Origin: a virus
Lineage: Duplodnaviria; Heunggongvirae; Uroviricota; Caudoviricetes
Length of the DNA: 12,320 bases
Direction: 5' to 3' (one strand)
IMG/VR virus record: IMGVR_UViG_2851955134_000006
Location: 1-12,320 of that record
Shown here: positions 1,605 through 9,047 of the stretch, one piece after another
Layout: the number at the start of each line of letters is the position of its first letter
Numbering within the stretch: the first letter of the stretch is position 1
Translations under genes and position numbers: made by a program
Notes under the pieces: generated by a model
Database searches by the model: none
Told to the model about the DNA's origin: nothing
The model's input: only the letters and a program-made list of their open reading frames with translations

Positions 1605-1793
1605 GTGTTAAGCACTGATCGCTTTATACGTGAAAAAGAATGCGAAAAGCTAACAGGCCTTAGCCGCTCATGCCGCTACCGCCTGGAAAAGGCCGGACAA
1701 TTCCCATCACGGCGTAAGCTGGGCGGTCGTTCCGTTGGCTGGTCTTTATCCGAAGTTCTGGCATGGAAGGAAAGCTGCGAGGCAGTTCACTAA
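1605..1793 (+). CDS. alpA: AlpA-family (prophage CP4-57 regulatory protein-like) HTH transcriptional regulator / excisionase-like protein
   Basis: 62-aa ORF with GTG start and SD-like aaggggg 6 nt upstream. Sequence pattern TGLSRS..YRL...GQFP...LGGRSVGW..SEV..W is typical of AlpA/Xis-like MerR-type HTH proteins, and its position directly after int is typical of P4-like islands and Gram-negative PICIs. Confidence 0.8.
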   Translation: MLSTDRFIREKECEKLTGLSRSCRYRLEKAGQFPSRRKLGGRSVGWSLSEVLAWKESCEAVH

Positions 1794-2369: not shown

Positions 2370-2549
2370 TTATTCTGATTCTTTGGCCTTGCGGCGCTGG
2401 CGGCGTTTGATCTCGCCTTTTGCGGCAGTAACTAAAAAACCAGCGGTACTTTCGCCAGGTTCTTTAAGTTGCTCAATATCATCCATTACTTCATGTGGGA
2501 TTCTGACAGTTGTCATTTGTGATTTTGCGTTCTTTGCACCAGTTGCCAT
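2370..2549 (-). CDS. Ribbon-helix-helix (CopG/Arc/MetJ-like) DNA-binding protein, candidate repressor
   Basis: 59-aa ORF starting MATGAKNAKSQMTTVRIPHEVMDDIEQL, an RHH-like N-terminal beta-strand motif (TVRIP.E....IE.L). Strong SD aggaga 7 nt upstream of the ATG on the minus strand. The ORF track's 118-aa version begins at an upstream ATG with no RBS. Confidence 0.6.
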   Translation of the reverse strand: MATGAKNAKSQMTTVRIPHEVMDDIEQLKEPGESTAGFLVTAAKGEIKRRQRRKAKESE

Positions 2550-2661: not shown

Positions 2662-2742
2662 CTGAAAGAGCAACGCCCCGCAGTGCTCGCAACACATGCA
2701 GGGCGTCTAACCACCAACGATAGCAAGAGTATCGAGGTAGCT

Positions 2743-2946
2743 ATGAGAAATCATACCACACACCCGCAAGGGCGGGACTCGCACAACCTGAATAAATACA
2801 TCTGGCGTTTTATCGCCCTGAGCACGGCACAACCGCGCGTAATTCACATCGAGGCCACCAGCGAACAGGAAGCACGTCAGCAATCTCCTGATGGCTGCGT
2901 GATGGTATTCGCCGCCCGTATTCGTCAGGAGGTGTGCCATGATTAA
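2743..2946 (+). CDS. Hypothetical protein (67 aa), first gene of the early operon
   Basis: ATG at 2743 with SD gaggt 5 nt upstream. The stop overlaps the next gene's start (ATG 2939, TAA 2944-2946), implying translational coupling. It is the C-terminal part of the long open frame 1846..2946, which is otherwise judged non-coding. Confidence 0.5.
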   Translation: MRNHTTHPQGRDSHNLNKYIWRFIALSTAQPRVIHIEATSEQEARQQSPDGCVMVFAARIRQEVCHD

Positions 2947-3307
2947 CCTGTCACTTACCGATCTTAACCGCGTTCAGTTTCGTGAGAAATTTACCGGACA
3001 GCTACTCGTCAATGTGGAGAACGGGCGCATAGTGCGTAATTATCACCTGCCGGATGGTGCAATTGCCGGAAGCGTTGAAGCATTGCTTGAACTGGCGGAA
3101 CGTGCGCGACTGATTAAGCCGTCAACGAACCATCACGATGATGATCTGCATTTTACCGGATGTATGGTGAGTCACTACGAAAACGGCGTCGAGGTATCCT
3201 GCGAACAGCTACGCACTGATTGCTGTTTTGGCACTCTGCCGGAATTTATCGAATTGCTGACCAGTTGCGGATATCAGGTTATTCAGGGGGTGCGCCATGT
3301 GCAATAA
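2939..3307 (+). CDS. Hypothetical protein (122 aa)
   Basis: Strong SD aggaggtg 4 nt upstream of the ATG; coupled to flanking genes. No recognisable family. Confidence 0.6.
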   Translation: MINLSLTDLNRVQFREKFTGQLLVNVENGRIVRNYHLPDGAIAGSVEALLELAERARLIKPSTNHHDDDLHFTGCMVSHYENGVEVSCEQLRTDCCFGTLPEFIELLTSCGYQVIQGVRHVQ

Positions 3308-3749
3308 CATCCGTCCGGACGCAGCCGCCGCCGCACTCACTACTCTGATGCACGCGCTTATTGATATTTCTGTTATTGCAGACATGGCGCATAAGCACGC
3401 CACCAGAGAGACGGAATATACAGGGGAAATAATCCCCCATTCGCTGGCCTACGCACAGCTTACCGCTGATATGGCACTGAATGAAGCCAAAGCCATCCTG
3501 ATTGCTGATTGTGAAAATGGGGGGGTTATGCGTGATGATCGTTTTAATGCCCTGAAACAGGAATTTTCCGGCGTTCCTGATAATGCGGCTGATGCGCTTT
3601 CGTCAATGCCAGAGCTTATTAGAGCGGCTTTTTTCTTACTTTCCACGAGAGAATATAAATCAACGGGGCTTGATGTACTGAATATCGCCGCCGATTATGC
3701 TGATTTCGTGACAGAGGTTATTTTAAGAAAAACGACGGACGGGGATTAA
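3297..3749 (+). CDS. Hypothetical protein (150 aa)
   Basis: ATG overlaps the upstream gene's end, with SD caggggg upstream. Protein-like composition. No recognisable family. Confidence 0.6.
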   Translation: MCNNIRPDAAAAALTTLMHALIDISVIADMAHKHATRETEYTGEIIPHSLAYAQLTADMALNEAKAILIADCENGGVMRDDRFNALKQEFSGVPDNAADALSSMPELIRAAFFLLSTREYKSTGLDVLNIAADYADFVTEVILRKTTDGD

Positions 3750-3750
3750 T

Positions 3751-3984
3751 ATGCGTGATATTTACCTAGAAACAATAGACCGCGCATTTAGTGCCATTGT
3801 TTACGCTGAAGGTATGTACGAAATATTGCAAATGTATCTGGATACATTTGGCGATAATGAGCGTGATGTAAAGAATGCGCGGATTATTAAATCTCTGATA
3901 ACTCTCCTTGAACCTGTAATAACAGAGTTGCAGGAAATAGACCTATTGCACGACAGATATAAAGAACAGCACACCGGAGAATAA
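3751..3984 (+). CDS. Hypothetical protein (77 aa)
   Basis: Starts 2 nt after the upstream stop, with SD gacgggga upstream. No recognisable family. Confidence 0.55.
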   Translation: MRDIYLETIDRAFSAIVYAEGMYEILQMYLDTFGDNERDVKNARIIKSLITLLEPVITELQEIDLLHDRYKEQHTGE

Positions 3985-3989
3985 AAATA

Positions 3990-4289
3990 ATGAAACTTAA
4001 ATATTCTGGCTTTACTGCCAGCGGCCCCGCTCGGCCTGAAATCCGCCCCGGCGATATTTTCAAAGATAACTACGGCGGCACGGTAACAATTAAAAGCGTG
4101 GAGGAACGTCGCGTAACTTACCGCCGTGATGGCTACGAATATGACTGCGTGATGCCTGTTTATCAGTTCCGGCGTGATTTTTCTCTGGTACAGAACGCAA
4201 CACGCGGTAAGCCCACCAGCAGGGAAAAAGCACGGGAAAATATTAAGAAAATAAAAAGCATGCTCAGCGCATCCAGAGGTAAAAAATGA
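3990..4289 (+). CDS. Hypothetical protein (99 aa), basic C-terminus
   Basis: SD ccggaga upstream; its stop overlaps the start of the replicase gene (ATGA at 4286-4289). Confidence 0.55.
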   Translation: MKLKYSGFTASGPARPEIRPGDIFKDNYGGTVTIKSVEERRVTYRRDGYEYDCVMPVYQFRRDFSLVQNATRGKPTSREKARENIKKIKSMLSASRGKK

Positions 4290-5692
4290 AACTGGCACCG
4301 AACGTAAAACTGTTACCGAAAGATAAACACACTGAGGCGGTTATTTTTGCGGGTGATAATGCTCACTCCTTTGCAGAACATTACATGATTGCACAGGCCA
4401 AAAAAGCAGGCGATCCCATCCCTCCGGTTTACCTGGGCCGTTATCAGTTAAGCGAACTGGACAACTTACAGATTGTTGATGAAGGACGATACAGGGCAAA
4501 GGTCATACGCGCCGGAAACCTGGACGATATGCAGATGCTGACCATTGCCACCAAACTGGCGATCGCAGGTGTCCAGGAAGCACGGTTACTTTCAGAGAAT
4601 TTCGAACTGCTGGAGGACTGGAGCGAGCAACTACCGCGGCTTAAAGAAACCTGGGAACGCGGGGAAAGTCTGGTCATGAATGGTGGAAAGCGAAAAATCA
4701 CACTTCCCATCTCATGGGGTTCTGAGGGATTCGACGCGCAGCAAAGCTACGTAATTAAGGGGCTTATTCCGGCTGAGTCATTATGCAGCACCTACGGGGC
4801 CAGCGGTTCTTATAAATCGTTCCTGGCTATTTCCTGGTCGTGCCATGTTGCCACAGGTATGGCATGGGGAGGCCGCAGGGTAAGTAAGGGCGCTGTTATC
4901 TATATCGCTGGCGAAGGCAGTATGGGCGTAAAACGCCGCGTTAAGGCGTGGGAGATAACCCATGACAAGGTGGTTACAGATTTGTGCATCATTAACGCGC
5001 CGGTATTCCCCGCATCGCCTGACTATGTGGAGCAGGTTATCAGGACTGCCGGACTTGTTAAGAGCAGAACGGGCGAAAATGTGCCGCTGATTGTGATCGA
5101 CACGCTGGCCCGTTGCTTTGGTGGGAATGATGAAAATGATTCCCGTGATATGGGCGCATTTATCCAGGGGTGTGACGCGATAAAGCAGGCTACAGGGGCC
5201 ACGGTGCTGGTGGTTCACCATTCCGGCAAGGATGAAACAAAGGGGGCGCGTGGTTCCAGCGCATTCCGTGCCGCGCTTGATGCAGAGTACCGAATCAGCC
5301 GGGAAAATTCAGACGTTACAGCACTGGTGGCGGCGTGTACGAAGATGAAGGACGCAGAGGAGCCAAAAGAAAGCGCATACGACCTTAAAAGCGTGGAGGT
5401 GTTCACCGATACAGATGGCGAAGAAATTGTGTCTATGGTGGTGATTGACGTTCCCCGCGCCCCTGCTGAACTGGAGCGCATCGAGGAAGCAGGCAACAAA
5501 TCGGAGAATCACGCCGCGCTATGGCAGTGCATCAGAACGCGGACGGCACACAAAGAGCCATGCACTATCGCCCTTCTCCGCGACGATATGAAAAAGCTGG
5601 GGTATGAGATGAAGCACTTCCGGCGCTGGCTGTCCAAGCTGGAAAAAGACGGCGTGATTTGTGTCGATGGGGATGATGTTTACCCACTGTAA
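4286..5692 (+). CDS. Replication initiator ATPase / helicase, RecA-like P-loop NTPase (RepA/AAA_25-like), satellite replicase
   Basis: 468-aa ORF with a P-loop-like segment (LIPAESLCSTYGASGSYKSFLAISW), a Walker B-like hhhhD segment (PLIVIDTLARCFG) and a VVHHSGKDETKG segment typical of RepA/DnaB-type ATPases. Immediately followed by an iteron array. Confidence 0.8.
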   Translation: MKLAPNVKLLPKDKHTEAVIFAGDNAHSFAEHYMIAQAKKAGDPIPPVYLGRYQLSELDNLQIVDEGRYRAKVIRAGNLDDMQMLTIATKLAIAGVQEARLLSENFELLEDWSEQLPRLKETWERGESLVMNGGKRKITLPISWGSEGFDAQQSYVIKGLIPAESLCSTYGASGSYKSFLAISWSCHVATGMAWGGRRVSKGAVIYIAGEGSMGVKRRVKAWEITHDKVVTDLCIINAPVFPASPDYVEQVIRTAGLVKSRTGENVPLIVIDTLARCFGGNDENDSRDMGAFIQGCDAIKQATGATVLVVHHSGKDETKGARGSSAFRAALDAEYRISRENSDVTALVAACTKMKDAEEPKESAYDLKSVEVFTDTDGEEIVSMVVIDVPRAPAELERIEEAGNKSENHAALWQCIRTRTAHKEPCTIALLRDDMKKLGYEMKHFRRWLSKLEKDGVICVDGDDVYPL

Positions 5693-5895
5693 AAAGTGGG
5701 TAGTAAAAGTGGGGAGAGTGGGGAATTTAACAAAATTGAAACATAATTCCCCACTTTCCCACCTGTATACATCCAAAAAAGTGGGGAGCAAAAAACGCAA
5801 TGAAAAACAAAGCATTAGATTCACTCAAAAAACGAAGTGGGGAGCAAGTGGGGAATTTAAAAAGTGGGGAGCAAAAGTGGGGAGTGGTGGGGAAT
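5693..5895. repeat. Iteron array, putative origin of replication of the element
   Basis: At least eight direct copies plus one inverted copy of the core AGTGGGGA, in two flavours (AGTGGGGAGCA and AGTGGGGAATTT), at roughly 5708, 5717, 5780, 5836, 5847, 5863 and 5876, with a variant at 5695 and the inverted copy at 5746-5757. AT-rich spacers. Sits directly downstream of the replicase gene. Confidence 0.7.
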
Positions 5896-5938
5896 GAATA
5901 AAAACCGAACAGCAGGACAAAATACAGAAGGTGAATTT

Positions 5939-6925: not shown

Positions 6926-7198
6926 ATGGTACATGACCGGATAGCGGAGGAACTGGAGGCGAAAGGATTTTACCGGAGGGCGGCCGCGCGATGGGGTGAA
7001 GTTATGTGGCTGGTGAGCACTGACAAGGAGCGCGAACAGGTGGCAATGCGACGGCTGGAATGTTCCCGGAAGGCACAGAGGCCACCGGAGCCACCGGATG
7101 ATTTAGGCGCTCTGAAAAGGTCAGTTAATCGCACTGAAAAACAAATGGGGATAGCTGGTATTGGCAAAGCAATATGGCGCAACTACCCGCAGAAGTGA
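6926..7198 (+). CDS. PerC-family transcriptional regulator-like protein (90 aa)
   Basis: ATG at 6926 with SD gaggggg upstream. The N-terminal segment MVHDRIAEELEAKGFYRRAAARWGEVMWL matches the PerC/Pch-family pattern (LE.KG.YRRAA.RW) as recalled from memory. The ORF track's longer version overlaps ssb and lacks an RBS. Confidence 0.5.
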   Translation: MVHDRIAEELEAKGFYRRAAARWGEVMWLVSTDKEREQVAMRRLECSRKAQRPPEPPDDLGALKRSVNRTEKQMGIAGIGKAIWRNYPQK

Positions 7199-7438: not shown

Positions 7439-7645
7439 ATGGCAGAAGAGAAAAAAGGCGGGGTGACGGTCTACATAAGCCCCGACATCGTGGAGGCGCT
7501 CAAGGAACGCCACCAGCAGAATGTAAAAGCAGGCATTGCGGCAGGACTTGATCCGCTGGCGATGGTTGAGCCGTCAACAGGCTGGCAGGTGCGCACCTAT
7601 TTACGTGCGGCGCTGGGTATCAATCAGGTTCACGGAGGTGAATAA
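7439..7645 (+). CDS. Hypothetical protein (68 aa), first gene of the head module
   Basis: SD aagaggaa upstream; its stop overlaps the capsid gene start (TAATG). Confidence 0.5.
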   Translation: MAEEKKGGVTVYISPDIVEALKERHQQNVKAGIAAGLDPLAMVEPSTGWQVRTYLRAALGINQVHGGE

Positions 7646-8700
7646 TGACAGGCAAAGCAACGGCACTTACAACTAACCAGCTTTTCGCGTACCTGAATCG
7701 CGGGGATATTGCGGATTTTAAATTCAGCCCTCTGTTTACCACGCTGTTTTTCCCGAACGTGGCGACCTTCAACACCCAAAACATCATGCTGGACACCCTG
7801 GACATTGAAGAGGTTACGATGTCAGCGTTCTGTTCGCCTATGGTGGGTAGTCAGGTCCAGCGCGATAAAGGGTACGAAACCAGCACGATTAAACCCGGCT
7901 ACATGAAGCCAAAGCACGAAATCGATCCAACAAAGACCATCATGCGCATGGCTGGAGAAGATCCGGCACAGCTTAACGATCCAACTTACCGCCGTATGCG
8001 CCTGATTACTGGCAACATGCGCCGCCAGATAAACGCCATTAAGGCGCGCGTGGAATGGCTGGCGGTGAATGCGGTAACGACCGGAAAAAACATCATTGAG
8101 GGCGAAGGCATAGAACGCTATGAAATCGACTGGAAAATACCGGAAAACTGCATCATACAGCAGGCCAGTGGTAAAAAATGGTCCCAGCAGGATAAAGACA
8201 TGCACGACCCAATCTATGACATCGAGCTTTATGCTGATCAGGCAGGTTGCCCCGCCAACGTCATGATTATGGGCGGTGAGGTATGGCGCACATTACGCAG
8301 CTTTAAAAAATTCCGTGAACTGTACGATCTTTCCCGTGGGTCAGAATCCGCCGCCGAGCTGGCCTGTAAAAACCTGGGCGAAGTGGTGAGCTTTAAAGGC
8401 TATCTTGGTGATCTGGCCCTTATCGTCTATTCCGGCAAATACACTGACAGCGACGGCACCGAAAAATATTTCCTTGAGCCTGATTTGCTGGTCCTGGGTA
8501 ACACCAACAATAAAGGGCTGGTGGCCTATGGTGCGATTATGGATCAGGAAGCGGTAAGAACGGGCGCAACGCAAAACATGTACTACCCGAAAAACTGGAT
8601 TGAGGACGGCGATCCGGCGATTGAGTACGTGCAGACGCACAGCGCACCGCAGCCGGTACCGGCAGATATTCGCAAATTTGTTACCGTCAAAATTGCTTAA
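7645..8700 (+). CDS. Major capsid protein, lambda gpE family
   Basis: 351-aa ORF with SD ggaggtg upstream. Blocks of similarity to lambda gpE as recalled from memory: DFKFSPLF..LFF near the N-terminus, PGYMKPKHEIDP (lambda PGYVKPKHEVNP), DPTYRRMRLITGNMR (lambda DPAYRRRRIIMQNMR), and C-terminal YPKNWIEDGDPA...SAP...FVTVKIA (lambda YPKNWVTTGDPA...SAP...FVSVQLA). Confidence 0.9.
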   Translation: MTGKATALTTNQLFAYLNRGDIADFKFSPLFTTLFFPNVATFNTQNIMLDTLDIEEVTMSAFCSPMVGSQVQRDKGYETSTIKPGYMKPKHEIDPTKTIMRMAGEDPAQLNDPTYRRMRLITGNMRRQINAIKARVEWLAVNAVTTGKNIIEGEGIERYEIDWKIPENCIIQQASGKKWSQQDKDMHDPIYDIELYADQAGCPANVMIMGGEVWRTLRSFKKFRELYDLSRGSESAAELACKNLGEVVSFKGYLGDLALIVYSGKYTDSDGTEKYFLEPDLLVLGNTNNKGLVAYGAIMDQEAVRTGATQNMYYPKNWIEDGDPAIEYVQTHSAPQPVPADIRKFVTVKIA

Positions 8701-8711
8701 CGGGGGATTCT

Positions 8712-9047
8712 ATGGACGCTCCATACATTGAGTTATTTTCAGGCAGCCAGCAGGTATCCACGACGCTGGTACATTTTGCCGCTGATGCTGGCGTTATTCA
8801 GGAATTTACCCCTCTGATGCTGGCAGACAATGGCGAGTTTAAGGCGTGGGATGGTCAGGAATCTGGCAAAGCTGTTTATCTGACTTCGCACCCCGTGGAC
8901 ACGTCAAAGCAGAAATCAGCACAGTGTTACAAAACGGGGATATTCAATATTGCCGCCGTTAACTGGCCTGATAGCGTCGACACCGATGCGAAAAAATGCG
9001 CCGCCTTTGCGGGTTCCGGCGTATCCGTTCAGCCGCTGGCCCGATAA
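8712..9047 (+). CDS. Head decoration protein, lambda gpD family
   Basis: 111-aa ORF with SD cggggga upstream. Similarity to lambda gpD as recalled from memory: TPLMLADNGEFKAWDG (lambda TPLMLDTSSRKLVAWDG), YKTGIF (lambda YKSGTF), and C-terminal KKCAAFAGSGVSV (lambda KKRTAFAGTAISIV). Confidence 0.8.
   Translation: MDAPYIELFSGSQQVSTTLVHFAADAGVIQEFTPLMLADNGEFKAWDGQESGKAVYLTSHPVDTSKQKSAQCYKTGIFNIAAVNWPDSVDTDAKKCAAFAGSGVSVQPLAR

Follow-up and report, generated by a model that had tools for sequence, protein, structure and literature searches.

A five-gene block ahead of a satellite replicase as the ordinary front end of an Escherichia coli PICI main operon

The left operon of the satellite P4 consists of kil, eta, the cI RNA, epsilon, orf151 and the alpha primase. 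In phage P1, Icd is annotated as a cell-division inhibitor that is apparently needed for ant expression, and the icd and ant1 genes meet in an ATGA overlap with CAGGGGGG just before it. PICIs are related to P4 only through distant homology of Int, AlpA/Vis and Pri-Rep (PMC6092414). Their genes are activated by the helper-induced AlpA, and RgdR was found in all E. coli PICIs analysed (PMC6092414). RgdR is a DUF4222 protein (PMC10877973) that has been studied experimentally in E. coli O157:H7, where it regulates type III secretion and motility (PMC3378721). The protein (ECs1581; 99 aa, pI 10.09) binds DNA non-specifically, alters the LEE, motility and Congo-red binding, activates LEE1 and type III secretion and represses motility; phenotypes of this type have been reported solely for ECs1581, C1493 and engineered variants (PMC3378721). 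The literature offers no account of what benefit the module described below, of which this family is a part, brings to the satellite itself.

We analysed a window of 12,320 nucleotides that contains int (1-1230), alpA (1605-1793, plus strand), a replicase (4286-5692, plus strand), iterons (5690-5903) and lambda E/D-like capsid and decoration genes (7645-9047), as well as SSB and PerC. Judging from gene content and order, the window is laid out like a Gram-negative PICI, with int, alpA, a unidirectional replicase operon, downstream iterons and a capsid gene; the definition of such islands also includes a size of 10-20 kb and treats the capsid gene as optional. The alpA product (62 aa, Pfam Phage_AlpA, 5e-18), the PICI master activator, provides the upstream context of the block that is our subject. 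An earlier note had placed this block (2743-4289) between the control region and the satellite replicase, and rightly so: its genes are co-oriented with the replicase and tightly chained to it, and the PICI layout surrounds them.

The block consists of five real, chained protein-coding ORFs on the plus strand. ORF1 (2743-2946, 67 aa) opens the chain and is followed by ORF2 (2939-3307, 122 aa, pI 5.4), ORF3 (3297-3749, 150 aa, pI 4.6), ORF4 (3751-3984, 77 aa, pI 4.6) and ORF5 (3990-4289, 99 aa, pI 10.1), which closes the block ahead of a 468-aa RepA-type helicase (Pfam AAA_25, 2.5e-42). Coordinates, ribosome-binding sites and selection all agree with the five small genes first proposed. A Shine-Dalgarno-like site lies 5-11 nt upstream of every start (GAGG, AGGAGG, GGGGG, GGGGA and GGAGA for ORF1 to ORF5). 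Each ORF shows purifying selection in comparison with its homologs (dN/dS 0.19-0.45), and the same genes are annotated by NCBI's pipeline in related E. coli islands; hence, they are not chance reading frames. The earlier view that none of the proteins belongs to a recognisable family did not hold. ORF1 falls into the Icd-like family NF033153 and ORF5 into DUF4222 (PF13973, 3e-26), and all five match PHROG families. The two best of these for ORF1 are labelled "transcriptional repressor", and those of ORF2-5 carry no assigned function (phrog_340 and phrog_2512 for ORF2, phrog_5146 and phrog_24341 for ORF3, phrog_2196 for ORF4).

The junctions predict translational coupling along the block. ORF1 and ORF2 overlap by 8 nt (ATGATTAA), with AGGAGG 6 nt upstream, ORF2 and ORF3 overlap by 11 nt, and the ORF5 stop and the replicase start share an ATGA. 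Overlapping start and stop codons had been claimed. Counting the replicase, this is true of three of the five junctions, and the other two are very short gaps, of 1 nt between ORF3 and ORF4 and of 5 nt between ORF4 and ORF5.

The first gene ties the block to phage P1. ORF1 scores 71.7 bits against NF033153 (cutoff 25, E = 3.8e-20), where P1 Icd itself scores 52.6 bits, and the two proteins are 40% identical over 43 aa (E = 4e-7). These matches make ORF1 homologous to P1 Icd, and on the strength of this homology it may transiently block host cell division. The likeness extends to the junction, since the 3' end of ORF1 encodes the Shine-Dalgarno sequence of the next gene. At the 3' end of PICI icd genes a CAGG(A/G)GG motif combined with a stop/start overlap occurs at nearly all junctions listed, regardless of which gene comes next. 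The block thus appears to be organised like P1 icd-ant. The analogy is incomplete because a C4-type antisense RNA was not found: upstream of icd no C4 or related Rfam family matches at E ≤ 1, and the conserved leader motif has no complementary copy anywhere in the window; we rejected an antisense RNA of the C4/CI type 5' of icd on these two results. Neither Pfam, NCBIfam nor PHROG gives a match to an antirepressor (Ant) for ORF2-5.

The region upstream of ORF1 holds several candidate control elements. Divergent from the block lies a small gene (2370-2549, minus strand, 59 aa, ATG at 2549) of the YlcI/YnfO family (NF041551, 4.9e-17), whose product may be a ribbon-helix-helix regulator; a YlcI-like gene is annotated at the equivalent position in five related islands (L001, L002 and L005-L007). 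A promoter-like site follows on the plus strand (2611-2666), with a -35 element TTGAAG (2611-2616), a 17-nt spacer and a -10 element TAAATT (2634-2639). It is flanked by inverted 17-mers (2611-2627 and 2650-2666, 88% complementary), which are candidate operators. The TTGA of the -35 element is unchanged in six islands, where a -10-like hexamer occurs at equal spacing. In a promoter scan, the sub-consensus site at 2611-2639 stays below the reporting threshold, so that its role as the block promoter is our inference.

The leader downstream of this site has a predicted fold (z = -3.3). Hairpin 1 (2673-2706, plus strand), which is followed by a nearly invariant CTAACCAC(C/A)AAC, shows changes on both sides in 7 of its 11 pairs among 27 distinct sequences. 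The observed covariation score was reached by none of 500 shuffles, and slid controls scored far lower. The hairpin matches no Rfam family. No G-U intermediates occur among the sequences compared, and this element could be a protein-bound DNA palindrome rather than an RNA structure. Hairpin 2 (2713-2738, plus strand) appears in both the minimum free energy and the centroid fold, and its 3' arm holds the Shine-Dalgarno sequence of ORF1 (GAGG, 2734-2737). Because it is nearly invariant across loci, covariation speaks neither for nor against it. We also considered whether AlpA might bypass a leader terminator in the manner of the antiterminator AlpA of P. aeruginosa, and rejected the idea: that AlpA has at least about 142 residues and eight helices, compared with 62 aa for the Phage_AlpA protein here, and hairpin 1 has no U tract. 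As an observation in its own right, the covarying hairpin a short way 5' of ORF1 may prove more valuable than the block.

Our favoured reading, with a probability of roughly 0.6, is that the block forms the conserved 5' portion of a long early operon, transcribed rightward in an enterobacterial PICI, and is not cargo; it would have a role both in gating and through its products. In this reading a helper phage would switch on AlpA, and transcription would start near 2646, from a promoter located upstream of ORF1 in the gap that separates it from the divergent ylcI-like gene. The fold of the leader RNA would partly occlude the Shine-Dalgarno sequence of ORF1. Once ORF1 is translated, ribosomes would move from gene to gene down the block, and because of this passage the synthesis of the replicase would be gated by ORF1 translation. 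Such gating would resemble the icd-dependent expression of ant in the P1 c4-icd-ant operon.

A conserved operon is supported by the comparison of 85 related loci, 80 of which were supplied by an alignment scan of IMG/VR; a scan of genome contigs for ORF5 gave only 2 loci because it used exact peptide patterns. In all 85 loci an Icd-like gene comes first and a DUF4222 gene last, followed by the replicase via ATGA. Between them come one to six small genes, and these change order, fuse or replace one another from locus to locus. The same block precedes three replicase types, and both lambda-type and HK97-type capsid modules. Parts of it are present in 1,902 of 5,426 complete E. coli genomes (about 30-35%), with ORF5 in 1,602, ORF3 in 1,099 and ORF2 in 642 of them, and the full block at ≥80% coverage in 120. 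The block is an ordinary, widely shared front end of the E. coli PICI main operon. The earlier note had pictured it as an accessory slot for anti-phage cargo, which is contradicted by the frame present in 85/85 loci, by this prevalence and by the lack of any PADLOC match. In the comparison across related islands, which it had proposed as a way to separate a conserved core from variable cargo, the core is the fixed frame; the middle cassettes vary.

One could still argue that ORF2-4, or even the whole block, are variable cargo for helper interference, helper derepression or defence against phages, as was first suggested. Their targets would be the repressor or late functions of lambdoid helpers, like those of P1 Ant or P4 epsilon. 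The middle, with its one to six cassettes, its allelic replacement and its many fusions, is what one would expect of cargo, and the gene coupled to icd in P1 is an antirepressor. In one database variant (P0173) an AntA antirepressor domain is fused to the C-terminal module of ORF2. ORF2-4 are also acidic, small and satellite-specific, being essentially absent from 50,697 phage records; searches of deposited phage records with ORF1, ORF3, ORF5 and the block DNA returned only two marginal matches, in a collection that may not include P4. Nevertheless, we regard cargo as doubtful, for the following reasons. First, no PADLOC model matches ORF1-5 (no family of PADLOC-DB 2.0 at E ≤ 0.1 in a scan of the ORFs and their neighbours), and the searches revealed neither an enzymatic nor a sensor domain. 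Second, it is the same handful of cassettes that recurs in hundreds of genomes, and not a wide range of unrelated systems. Third, the genes belong to a translationally chained series leading into the replicase, unlike known defence hotspots. Fourth, nothing homologous to P1 Ant or P4 proteins turned up, again in a collection that may not include P4.

What the middle proteins do can be narrowed down only a little. ORF2-4 are acidic orphan proteins that match only PHROG families of unassigned function. ORF2, the "c121" cassette, is internally duplicated, with two tandem copies of a module of about 45 aa (FTG..ENG..V....G....EL); its halves align with E = 1e-4, and its homologs were found in E. 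coli and Salmonella only. ORF3 is an in-frame fusion of two cassettes, "b74" (residues 1-73) and "d73" (residues 78-150), which are separate genes elsewhere; in BLASTP against the genes of three related islands (L005-L007) the N-terminal half is 64-66% and the C-terminal half 74-97% identical. ORF4, the "e77" cassette, has just 9 cluster representatives among 1.84 billion proteins. The match to phrog_2512 that ORF2 and ORF3 have in common does not make them paralogs: a direct BLASTP shows no similarity, and the match arises because fusion proteins sit inside that PHROG. Profile and structure searches, which the earlier note had recommended, yielded named families for ORF1 and ORF5 and no informative homolog for ORF2-4. 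Nothing significant was found among solved structures in single-sequence searches with ORF1-5 or in profile searches with ORF2 and ORF3. The armadillo-repeat matches of ORF2 were discarded, as a short LPEFIELL-like motif is summed over repeats and no single stretch passes; a match to the Ku70 SAP domain (E = 0.13) is not significant. AlphaFold2 models, built on shallow alignments (70-97% identity), have a pLDDT of 52 for ORF2 and of 54 for ORF3, whose model is all-helical, and Foldseek found no PDB match below E = 1 for the ORF2 model at that pLDDT. Our literature search found no paper that gives a homolog of ORF2-4 a function. From their charge, size, variability and context, our guess is that they are mostly helical adaptors or inhibitors that bind host or helper proteins, in which case their diversity would mirror that of their targets.

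The other end of the block leads to a different proposal, that ORF4 and ORF5, and possibly ORF2-3, are accessories of the replicase, acting in origin binding, helicase loading or primosome assembly. ORF5 scores 91.2 bits against DUF4222 (gathering threshold 27), has a pI of 10.14 and lies just upstream of the replicase, a position it has in common with its O157:H7 homolog. The ATGA coupling of DUF4222 to the replicase in 85/85 loci speaks for such a role, and so do the iterons just 3' of the replicase and the non-specific DNA binding of RgdR (PMC3378721). An ORF4-type gene directly precedes DUF4222 in 65 of the 85 loci. Furthermore, the N-terminal ~126 aa of the replicase are common to otherwise unrelated primase-type replicases and stay with DUF4222 where the catalytic part has been exchanged. 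On the other hand, which middle cassettes an island has does not depend on its replicase type, the searches linked none of the proteins to known loaders or initiators, and plasmid-borne RgdR alters host LEE and motility outside any replication context (PMC3378721). We think it unlikely that replication accounts for these genes. In our favoured reading, ORF5 would be either a small basic DNA-binding regulator or a replication accessory protein. ORF5 shares 67% identity with its 99-aa, RGD-bearing homolog in an O157:H7 cf-PICI (L005). The tripeptide that gave RgdR its name is absent from residues 20-22 of ORF5, which read P20-G21-D22 instead of R20-G21-D22, and because of this replacement the RgdR phenotypes may not transfer to ORF5.

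A more ambitious proposal, which we consider quite improbable, is that the block is a modular device on the P1 icd-ant plan for targeting helper or host, in which the Icd-like leader gates swappable acidic effectors through the undescribed covarying leader hairpin. These effectors, ORF2-4 and their alleles, would have proteins of the helper or the host as partners and could, for instance, induce lambdoid helpers in the manner of an antirepressor. The RgdR-family protein would be an anti-silencing factor resembling an H-NS antagonist, a role that would account at once for the activation of the LEE, the lost motility and the Congo-red binding. By strand slippage, a poly-G tract in ORF3 would switch the gene between a fused and a split form. 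This G7 tract (3519-3525, plus strand) lies at the fusion point together with an internal ATG (3528-3530, Met78) and doubles as the Shine-Dalgarno sequence of "d73". Across related loci, G7 and G10 go with a fused ORF, and G8, G9, G11 or an interrupted tract with two genes; GG, GGG and GGGG occur as protein variants at this point. Quite apart from any switch, the variable length of this G tract is a further observation that may prove more valuable than the block. It is very improbable that the small ORFs are mere translated spacers for Rho protection and replicase dosage whose products have no function: conserved overlaps and SD-in-ORF junctions, and cassettes freely reshuffled and fused without obvious loss, would fit, but dN/dS of 0.19-0.45 shows selection on the amino-acid sequences, invariant residues and motifs are present, and point mutants show that the RgdR phenotypes depend on the protein (PMC3378721).

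Taken by itself, this window shows an ordinary version of a module that is common. The module matters because its parts occur in roughly one in three complete E. coli genomes and because RgdR rewires EHEC virulence and motility. Our reading of the block as a conserved operon front makes it core and icd-ant-like, with a middle made up of small acidic proteins whose genes recombine. ORF1 and ORF5 belong to known families, and the homologs of ORF2-4 have no assigned function in the literature found by our search. Two concrete cis elements have been identified, the leader hairpin and the G tract.

Among described systems, the E. coli PICIs and cf-PICIs are the closest. EcCICFT073 and EcCIEDL933 (O-island 51, CP-933C) have the same int, alpA, divergent ylcI-like gene, Icd-like gene and small genes, then a 99-aa DUF4222 protein, the replicase, SSB, PerC and capsid genes, with counterparts of ORF1, ORF2, both ORF3 halves, ORF4 and ORF5 that are 64-97% identical. 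They differ in the common order of the middle, (a76)-b74-c121-d73-e77, whereas in the window c121 comes first and b74 is fused to d73, and RgdR (ECs1581) has RGD where ORF5 has PGD. In the P4 left operon, too, small genes, some of them with host-killing or helper-derepression functions, are transcribed before a satellite replicase, although no sequence similarity to P4 was seen in a collection that may not include it. In the P1 immI operon (c4-icd-ant1/ant2), a small homologous Icd is the first ORF as in the block, and the icd 3' end carries a CAGGGGG-type Shine-Dalgarno sequence and overlaps the next start, a design that the block shares; in P1, expression of the downstream gene depends on icd. 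Unlike P1, the block has a different, covarying hairpin in its leader, without a detectable C4 antisense RNA, and the genes that follow icd are not Ant homologs but form a chain that ends in the replicase.

Our comparison of related islands shows that the five small genes upstream of the replicase form a core module whose interior recombines, and not an accessory slot. This follows from a constant frame, a limited set of middle genes and counts in complete genomes. The comparison drew on 80 IMG/VR loci, which a DUF4222 alignment retrieved, together with five annotated islands of E. coli and two loci from other species; the frame counts cover the 85 loci that hold both ends of the block. Across these 85 loci an Icd-like gene always comes first and a DUF4222 gene last, and in every one of them the DUF4222 gene and the replicase gene overlap in an ATGA, which holds the stop of the former and the start of the latter. 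The number of small genes in the middle varies from one to six, all of them members of a limited repertoire (a76, b74, c121/c70, d73, x61, e77 and some that are less common), with the e77 family immediately upstream of DUF4222 in 65 loci. In the window, c121 (ORF2, 2939-3307) is followed by a b74::d73 fusion (ORF3, 3297-3749) and then by e77 (ORF4, 3751-3984), all between the Icd-like ORF1 (2743-2946) and the DUF4222 gene ORF5 (3990-4289). The most frequent middle in E. coli is (a76)-b74-c121-d73-e77. DNA resembling ORF5, ORF3 and ORF2 occurs in 1,602, 1,099 and 642 of 5,426 complete E. coli genomes, respectively, and the whole block (at least 80% coverage) in 120.

The same middle sets recur in islands with either a lambda-type or an HK97-type capsid module and stand before replicases of three types (two variants of the RepA helicase, and enzymes of the primase type); these types have only their N-terminal ~126 residues in common. 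One could also argue that the block genes are accessory to replication. The fixed position of ORF4 and ORF5, the ATGA coupling to the replicase and the shared replicase N-domain speak for such a role, which fits these two genes. It fits the freely assorting cassettes of the middle poorly. In addition, RgdR (ECs1581), a DUF4222 regulator of E. coli O157:H7, affects host genes outside replication (PMC3378721). The replicase N-terminal domain (4286-4663 in the window; compared with loci L002, L004 and L007) is about 45% identical between RepA-helicase-type and primase-type enzymes that are otherwise unrelated, and it always lies directly after DUF4222, with the ATGA overlap. A frequent class among the IMG/VR loci L050-L087 has the middle x61-a76, a replicase of the primase type and, downstream of this replicase, a second alpA-like gene.

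The earlier note had looked to this block for defence or helper-interference cargo. The variability of the middle genes and a chimera of an AntA domain with c121 could be read in this way, but the interpretation is not supported. It is weakened by four points: PADLOC returns no match for ORF1-5, enzymatic domains are absent, a few cassettes recur, and the genes sit within a chain whose last member is the replicase. That the small ORFs are only translated spacers is contradicted by dN/dS values of 0.19-0.45 for each of ORF1-5 against homologs from other islands, which mark them as protein-coding and under purifying selection, and by the phenotypes of RgdR point mutants (PMC3378721).

The structural part of the earlier observation is confirmed. 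All five ORFs, on the plus strand, match our ORF map exactly in coordinates and length, and their counterparts in related islands are also annotated by NCBI's pipeline. Good ribosome-binding sites had been claimed, and the sequence, read directly, has a Shine-Dalgarno-like site before all five starts: GAGG with the ATG 5 nt downstream (ORF1), AGGAGG with the ATG 6 nt downstream (ORF2), GGGGG (ORF3), GGGGA (ORF4) and GGAGA (ORF5). Overlapping start and stop codons hold for ORF1/ORF2 (8 nt, ATGATTAA), ORF2/ORF3 (11 nt) and ORF5/replicase (ATGA), but ORF3/ORF4 and ORF4/ORF5 are separated by short gaps of 1 and 5 nt.

The junctions also bear the marks of cassette exchange. In each protein the five or six C-terminal residues vary with the identity of the next gene, because the junction (Shine-Dalgarno site plus overlapping start) moves with the downstream gene: '...EV(C/H)H(D/A)' always precedes a c121 start and '...GV(R/G)HVQ' a b74 start. 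At nearly all of the junctions listed for related loci, whichever cassette follows, icd ends in CAGG(A/G)GG, the start of the next gene and an overlapping stop. The icd/ant1 junction of phage P1 (CAGGGGGGTTTATGA) has the same design. Protein databases hold many chimeras, such as c121::d73, a76::b74::d73, DUF4222::c121 and AntA-domain::c121.

The earlier description of proteins with no recognisable family was wrong for ORF1 and ORF5. ORF1 scores 71.7 bits (cutoff 25) against NCBIfam NF033153 ('host cell division inhibitor Icd-like protein') and aligns directly with P1 Icd (E = 4e-7, with 40% identity across a 43-residue alignment). ORF5 matches Pfam DUF4222 (91.2 bits, cutoff 27), the family of RgdR (PMC10877973). 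RgdR, a protein of 99 aa with a pI of 10.09 encoded on O-island 51/CP-933C, activates LEE1 and type III secretion and represses motility; it also increases the binding of Congo red, and its own DNA binding is non-specific (PMC3378721). ORF5 likewise has 99 aa and a computed pI of 10.14. The homolog from an O157:H7 capsid-forming phage-inducible chromosomal island (PICI) shares 67% identity with ORF5 and bears RGD, whereas residues 20-22 of ORF5 read PGD. Most likely ORF5 is a small basic DNA-binding regulator or a replication accessory factor. The three phenotypes reported for RgdR (more LEE expression, less motility, more Congo-red binding) are all like those expected when H-NS silencing is lost; one idea is that they might reflect such a loss.

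The three middle proteins, ORF2, ORF3 and ORF4, match only PHROG families, none with an assigned function. In a collection of 5.8 billion proteins, ORF2 and ORF3 have homologs exclusively from E. coli or Salmonella, mostly at >75% identity, and every one is labelled 'hypothetical'; for ORF4, HMMER run exhaustively on 1.84 billion cluster representatives gave nine matches. In a set of 50,697 deposited phage genomes, tblastn finds one marginal record each for ORF1 and ORF5 and none for ORF3, and blastn of the whole block, the one comparison covering ORF2 and ORF4, returns only the ORF1 record. This near-absence indicates that the gene set is satellite-specific. No significant PDB match came from sequence or profile searches, nor from Foldseek with the AlphaFold2 model of ORF2, whose pLDDT is 52 from a shallow alignment. 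ORF3 is predicted to be all-helical (pLDDT 54, alignment also shallow). ORF2 consists of a ~45-residue module, FTG..ENG..V....G....EL, duplicated in tandem, and its two halves align with E = 1e-4; E. coli also has single-module proteins of this type, 70 aa long, and deletion variants of 83-91 aa. ORF2-4 are acidic (computed pI 4.6-5.4) and most likely protein-binding adaptors or inhibitors.

How could the chain be expressed? The P1 record annotates Icd as an inhibitor of cell division that ant expression apparently requires. Because ORF1 is homologous to P1 Icd and shares its junction design, we propose that it acts both as a host-division inhibitor and as the translational entry to the chain: ribosomes finishing ORF1 would restart on ORF2 and continue onward to the replicase. 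AlpA, turned on by the helper, is the known activator of PICI genes (PMC6092414). Upstream of ORF1 lies a promoter-like site (-35 TTGAAG 2611-2616, 17-nt spacer, -10 TAAATT 2634-2639), where transcription would start once AlpA has been turned on. The TTGA of the -35-like element is invariant across six islands. Inverted 17-mers (2611-2627 and 2650-2666) flank the site; other islands have different palindromes there, built on GGTG/CACC. The control region (2550-2666) holds a divergent YlcI/YnfO-family gene (2370-2549, one of two small leftward genes in family scans), whose product is probably a ribbon-helix-helix protein. This gene and the 17-mers may together represent the repressor and operator that are missing from the picture of Gram-negative PICIs.

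The ~100-nt ORF1 leader folds better than shuffled controls (z = -3.3). Hairpin 2 (2713-2738) is nearly invariant and covers the ORF1 Shine-Dalgarno site. In hairpin 1 (2673-2706), both sides are changed in 7 of 11 pairs among 27 distinct sequences, a covariation reached by none of 500 shuffles and far above slid-partner controls; a nearly invariant CTAACCAC(C/A)AAC follows 3'. The hairpin matches no Rfam family. Since this alignment has no G-U intermediates, a protein-bound DNA palindrome is an alternative to an RNA hairpin. At the ORF3 fusion point, a G7 tract (3519-3525) also serves as the Shine-Dalgarno site of an internal ATG (Met78; region 3519-3530). Related loci have a fused gene with G7 or G10 and two genes with G8, G9, G11 or an interrupted tract, and database proteins vary there between GG, GGG and GGGG. 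This looks like slipped-strand variation, but in the metagenome-derived loci part of it may be homopolymer sequencing error. Hairpin 1 and the G tract are possibly worth more than the block itself.

According to the ORF map and family scans, the window holds an integrase gene (1-1230) and the gene of a 62-aa AlpA regulator (1605-1793). A short ORF after alpA (1846-~2000) begins with MKTGYTPEQGRGFVRP, resembling the N-terminus of the AntA-domain protein P0173 (MNTGYTPVQGRGFVRP), and is probably, judging from this likeness, a remnant of an AntA/AntB-type antirepressor gene; its counterpart in E. coli strain Ch1 is a frameshifted fragment in the NCBI annotation. The rightward run comprises the five small ORFs, the RepA-type helicase (4286-5692), SSB, a PerC-family regulator (6926-7198), lambda E-like major capsid and D-like decoration genes (7645-9047) and two small genes, and stops short of chromosomal allC on the opposite strand. 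The E- and D-like genes lie in an island of ~10 kb without a portal or large terminase gene; such capsid genes are reported to be common in PICIs, yet dispensable for transfer. PerC/Pch homologs from such islands are known LEE activators in EHEC and EPEC, so that the island has two families linked to virulence regulation, RgdR-like and PerC-like. Directly 3' of the replicase (5690-5903) are iterons (AAAAAGTGGGGAGCAAAAGTGGGGAG..., core AGTGGGGA, at least four copies in two clusters), at the place expected for a PICI replication origin.

The nearest relative in a complete genome is an island of strain Ch1 (86% coverage, 96% identity) at a different chromosomal site. The window's gene order corresponds to the layout published for Gram-negative PICIs, with int, alpA, genes in a single direction, an origin after the replicase and often a capsid gene (PMC6092414; PMC10111431). 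The window holds a variant arrangement of a known and very common PICI module.
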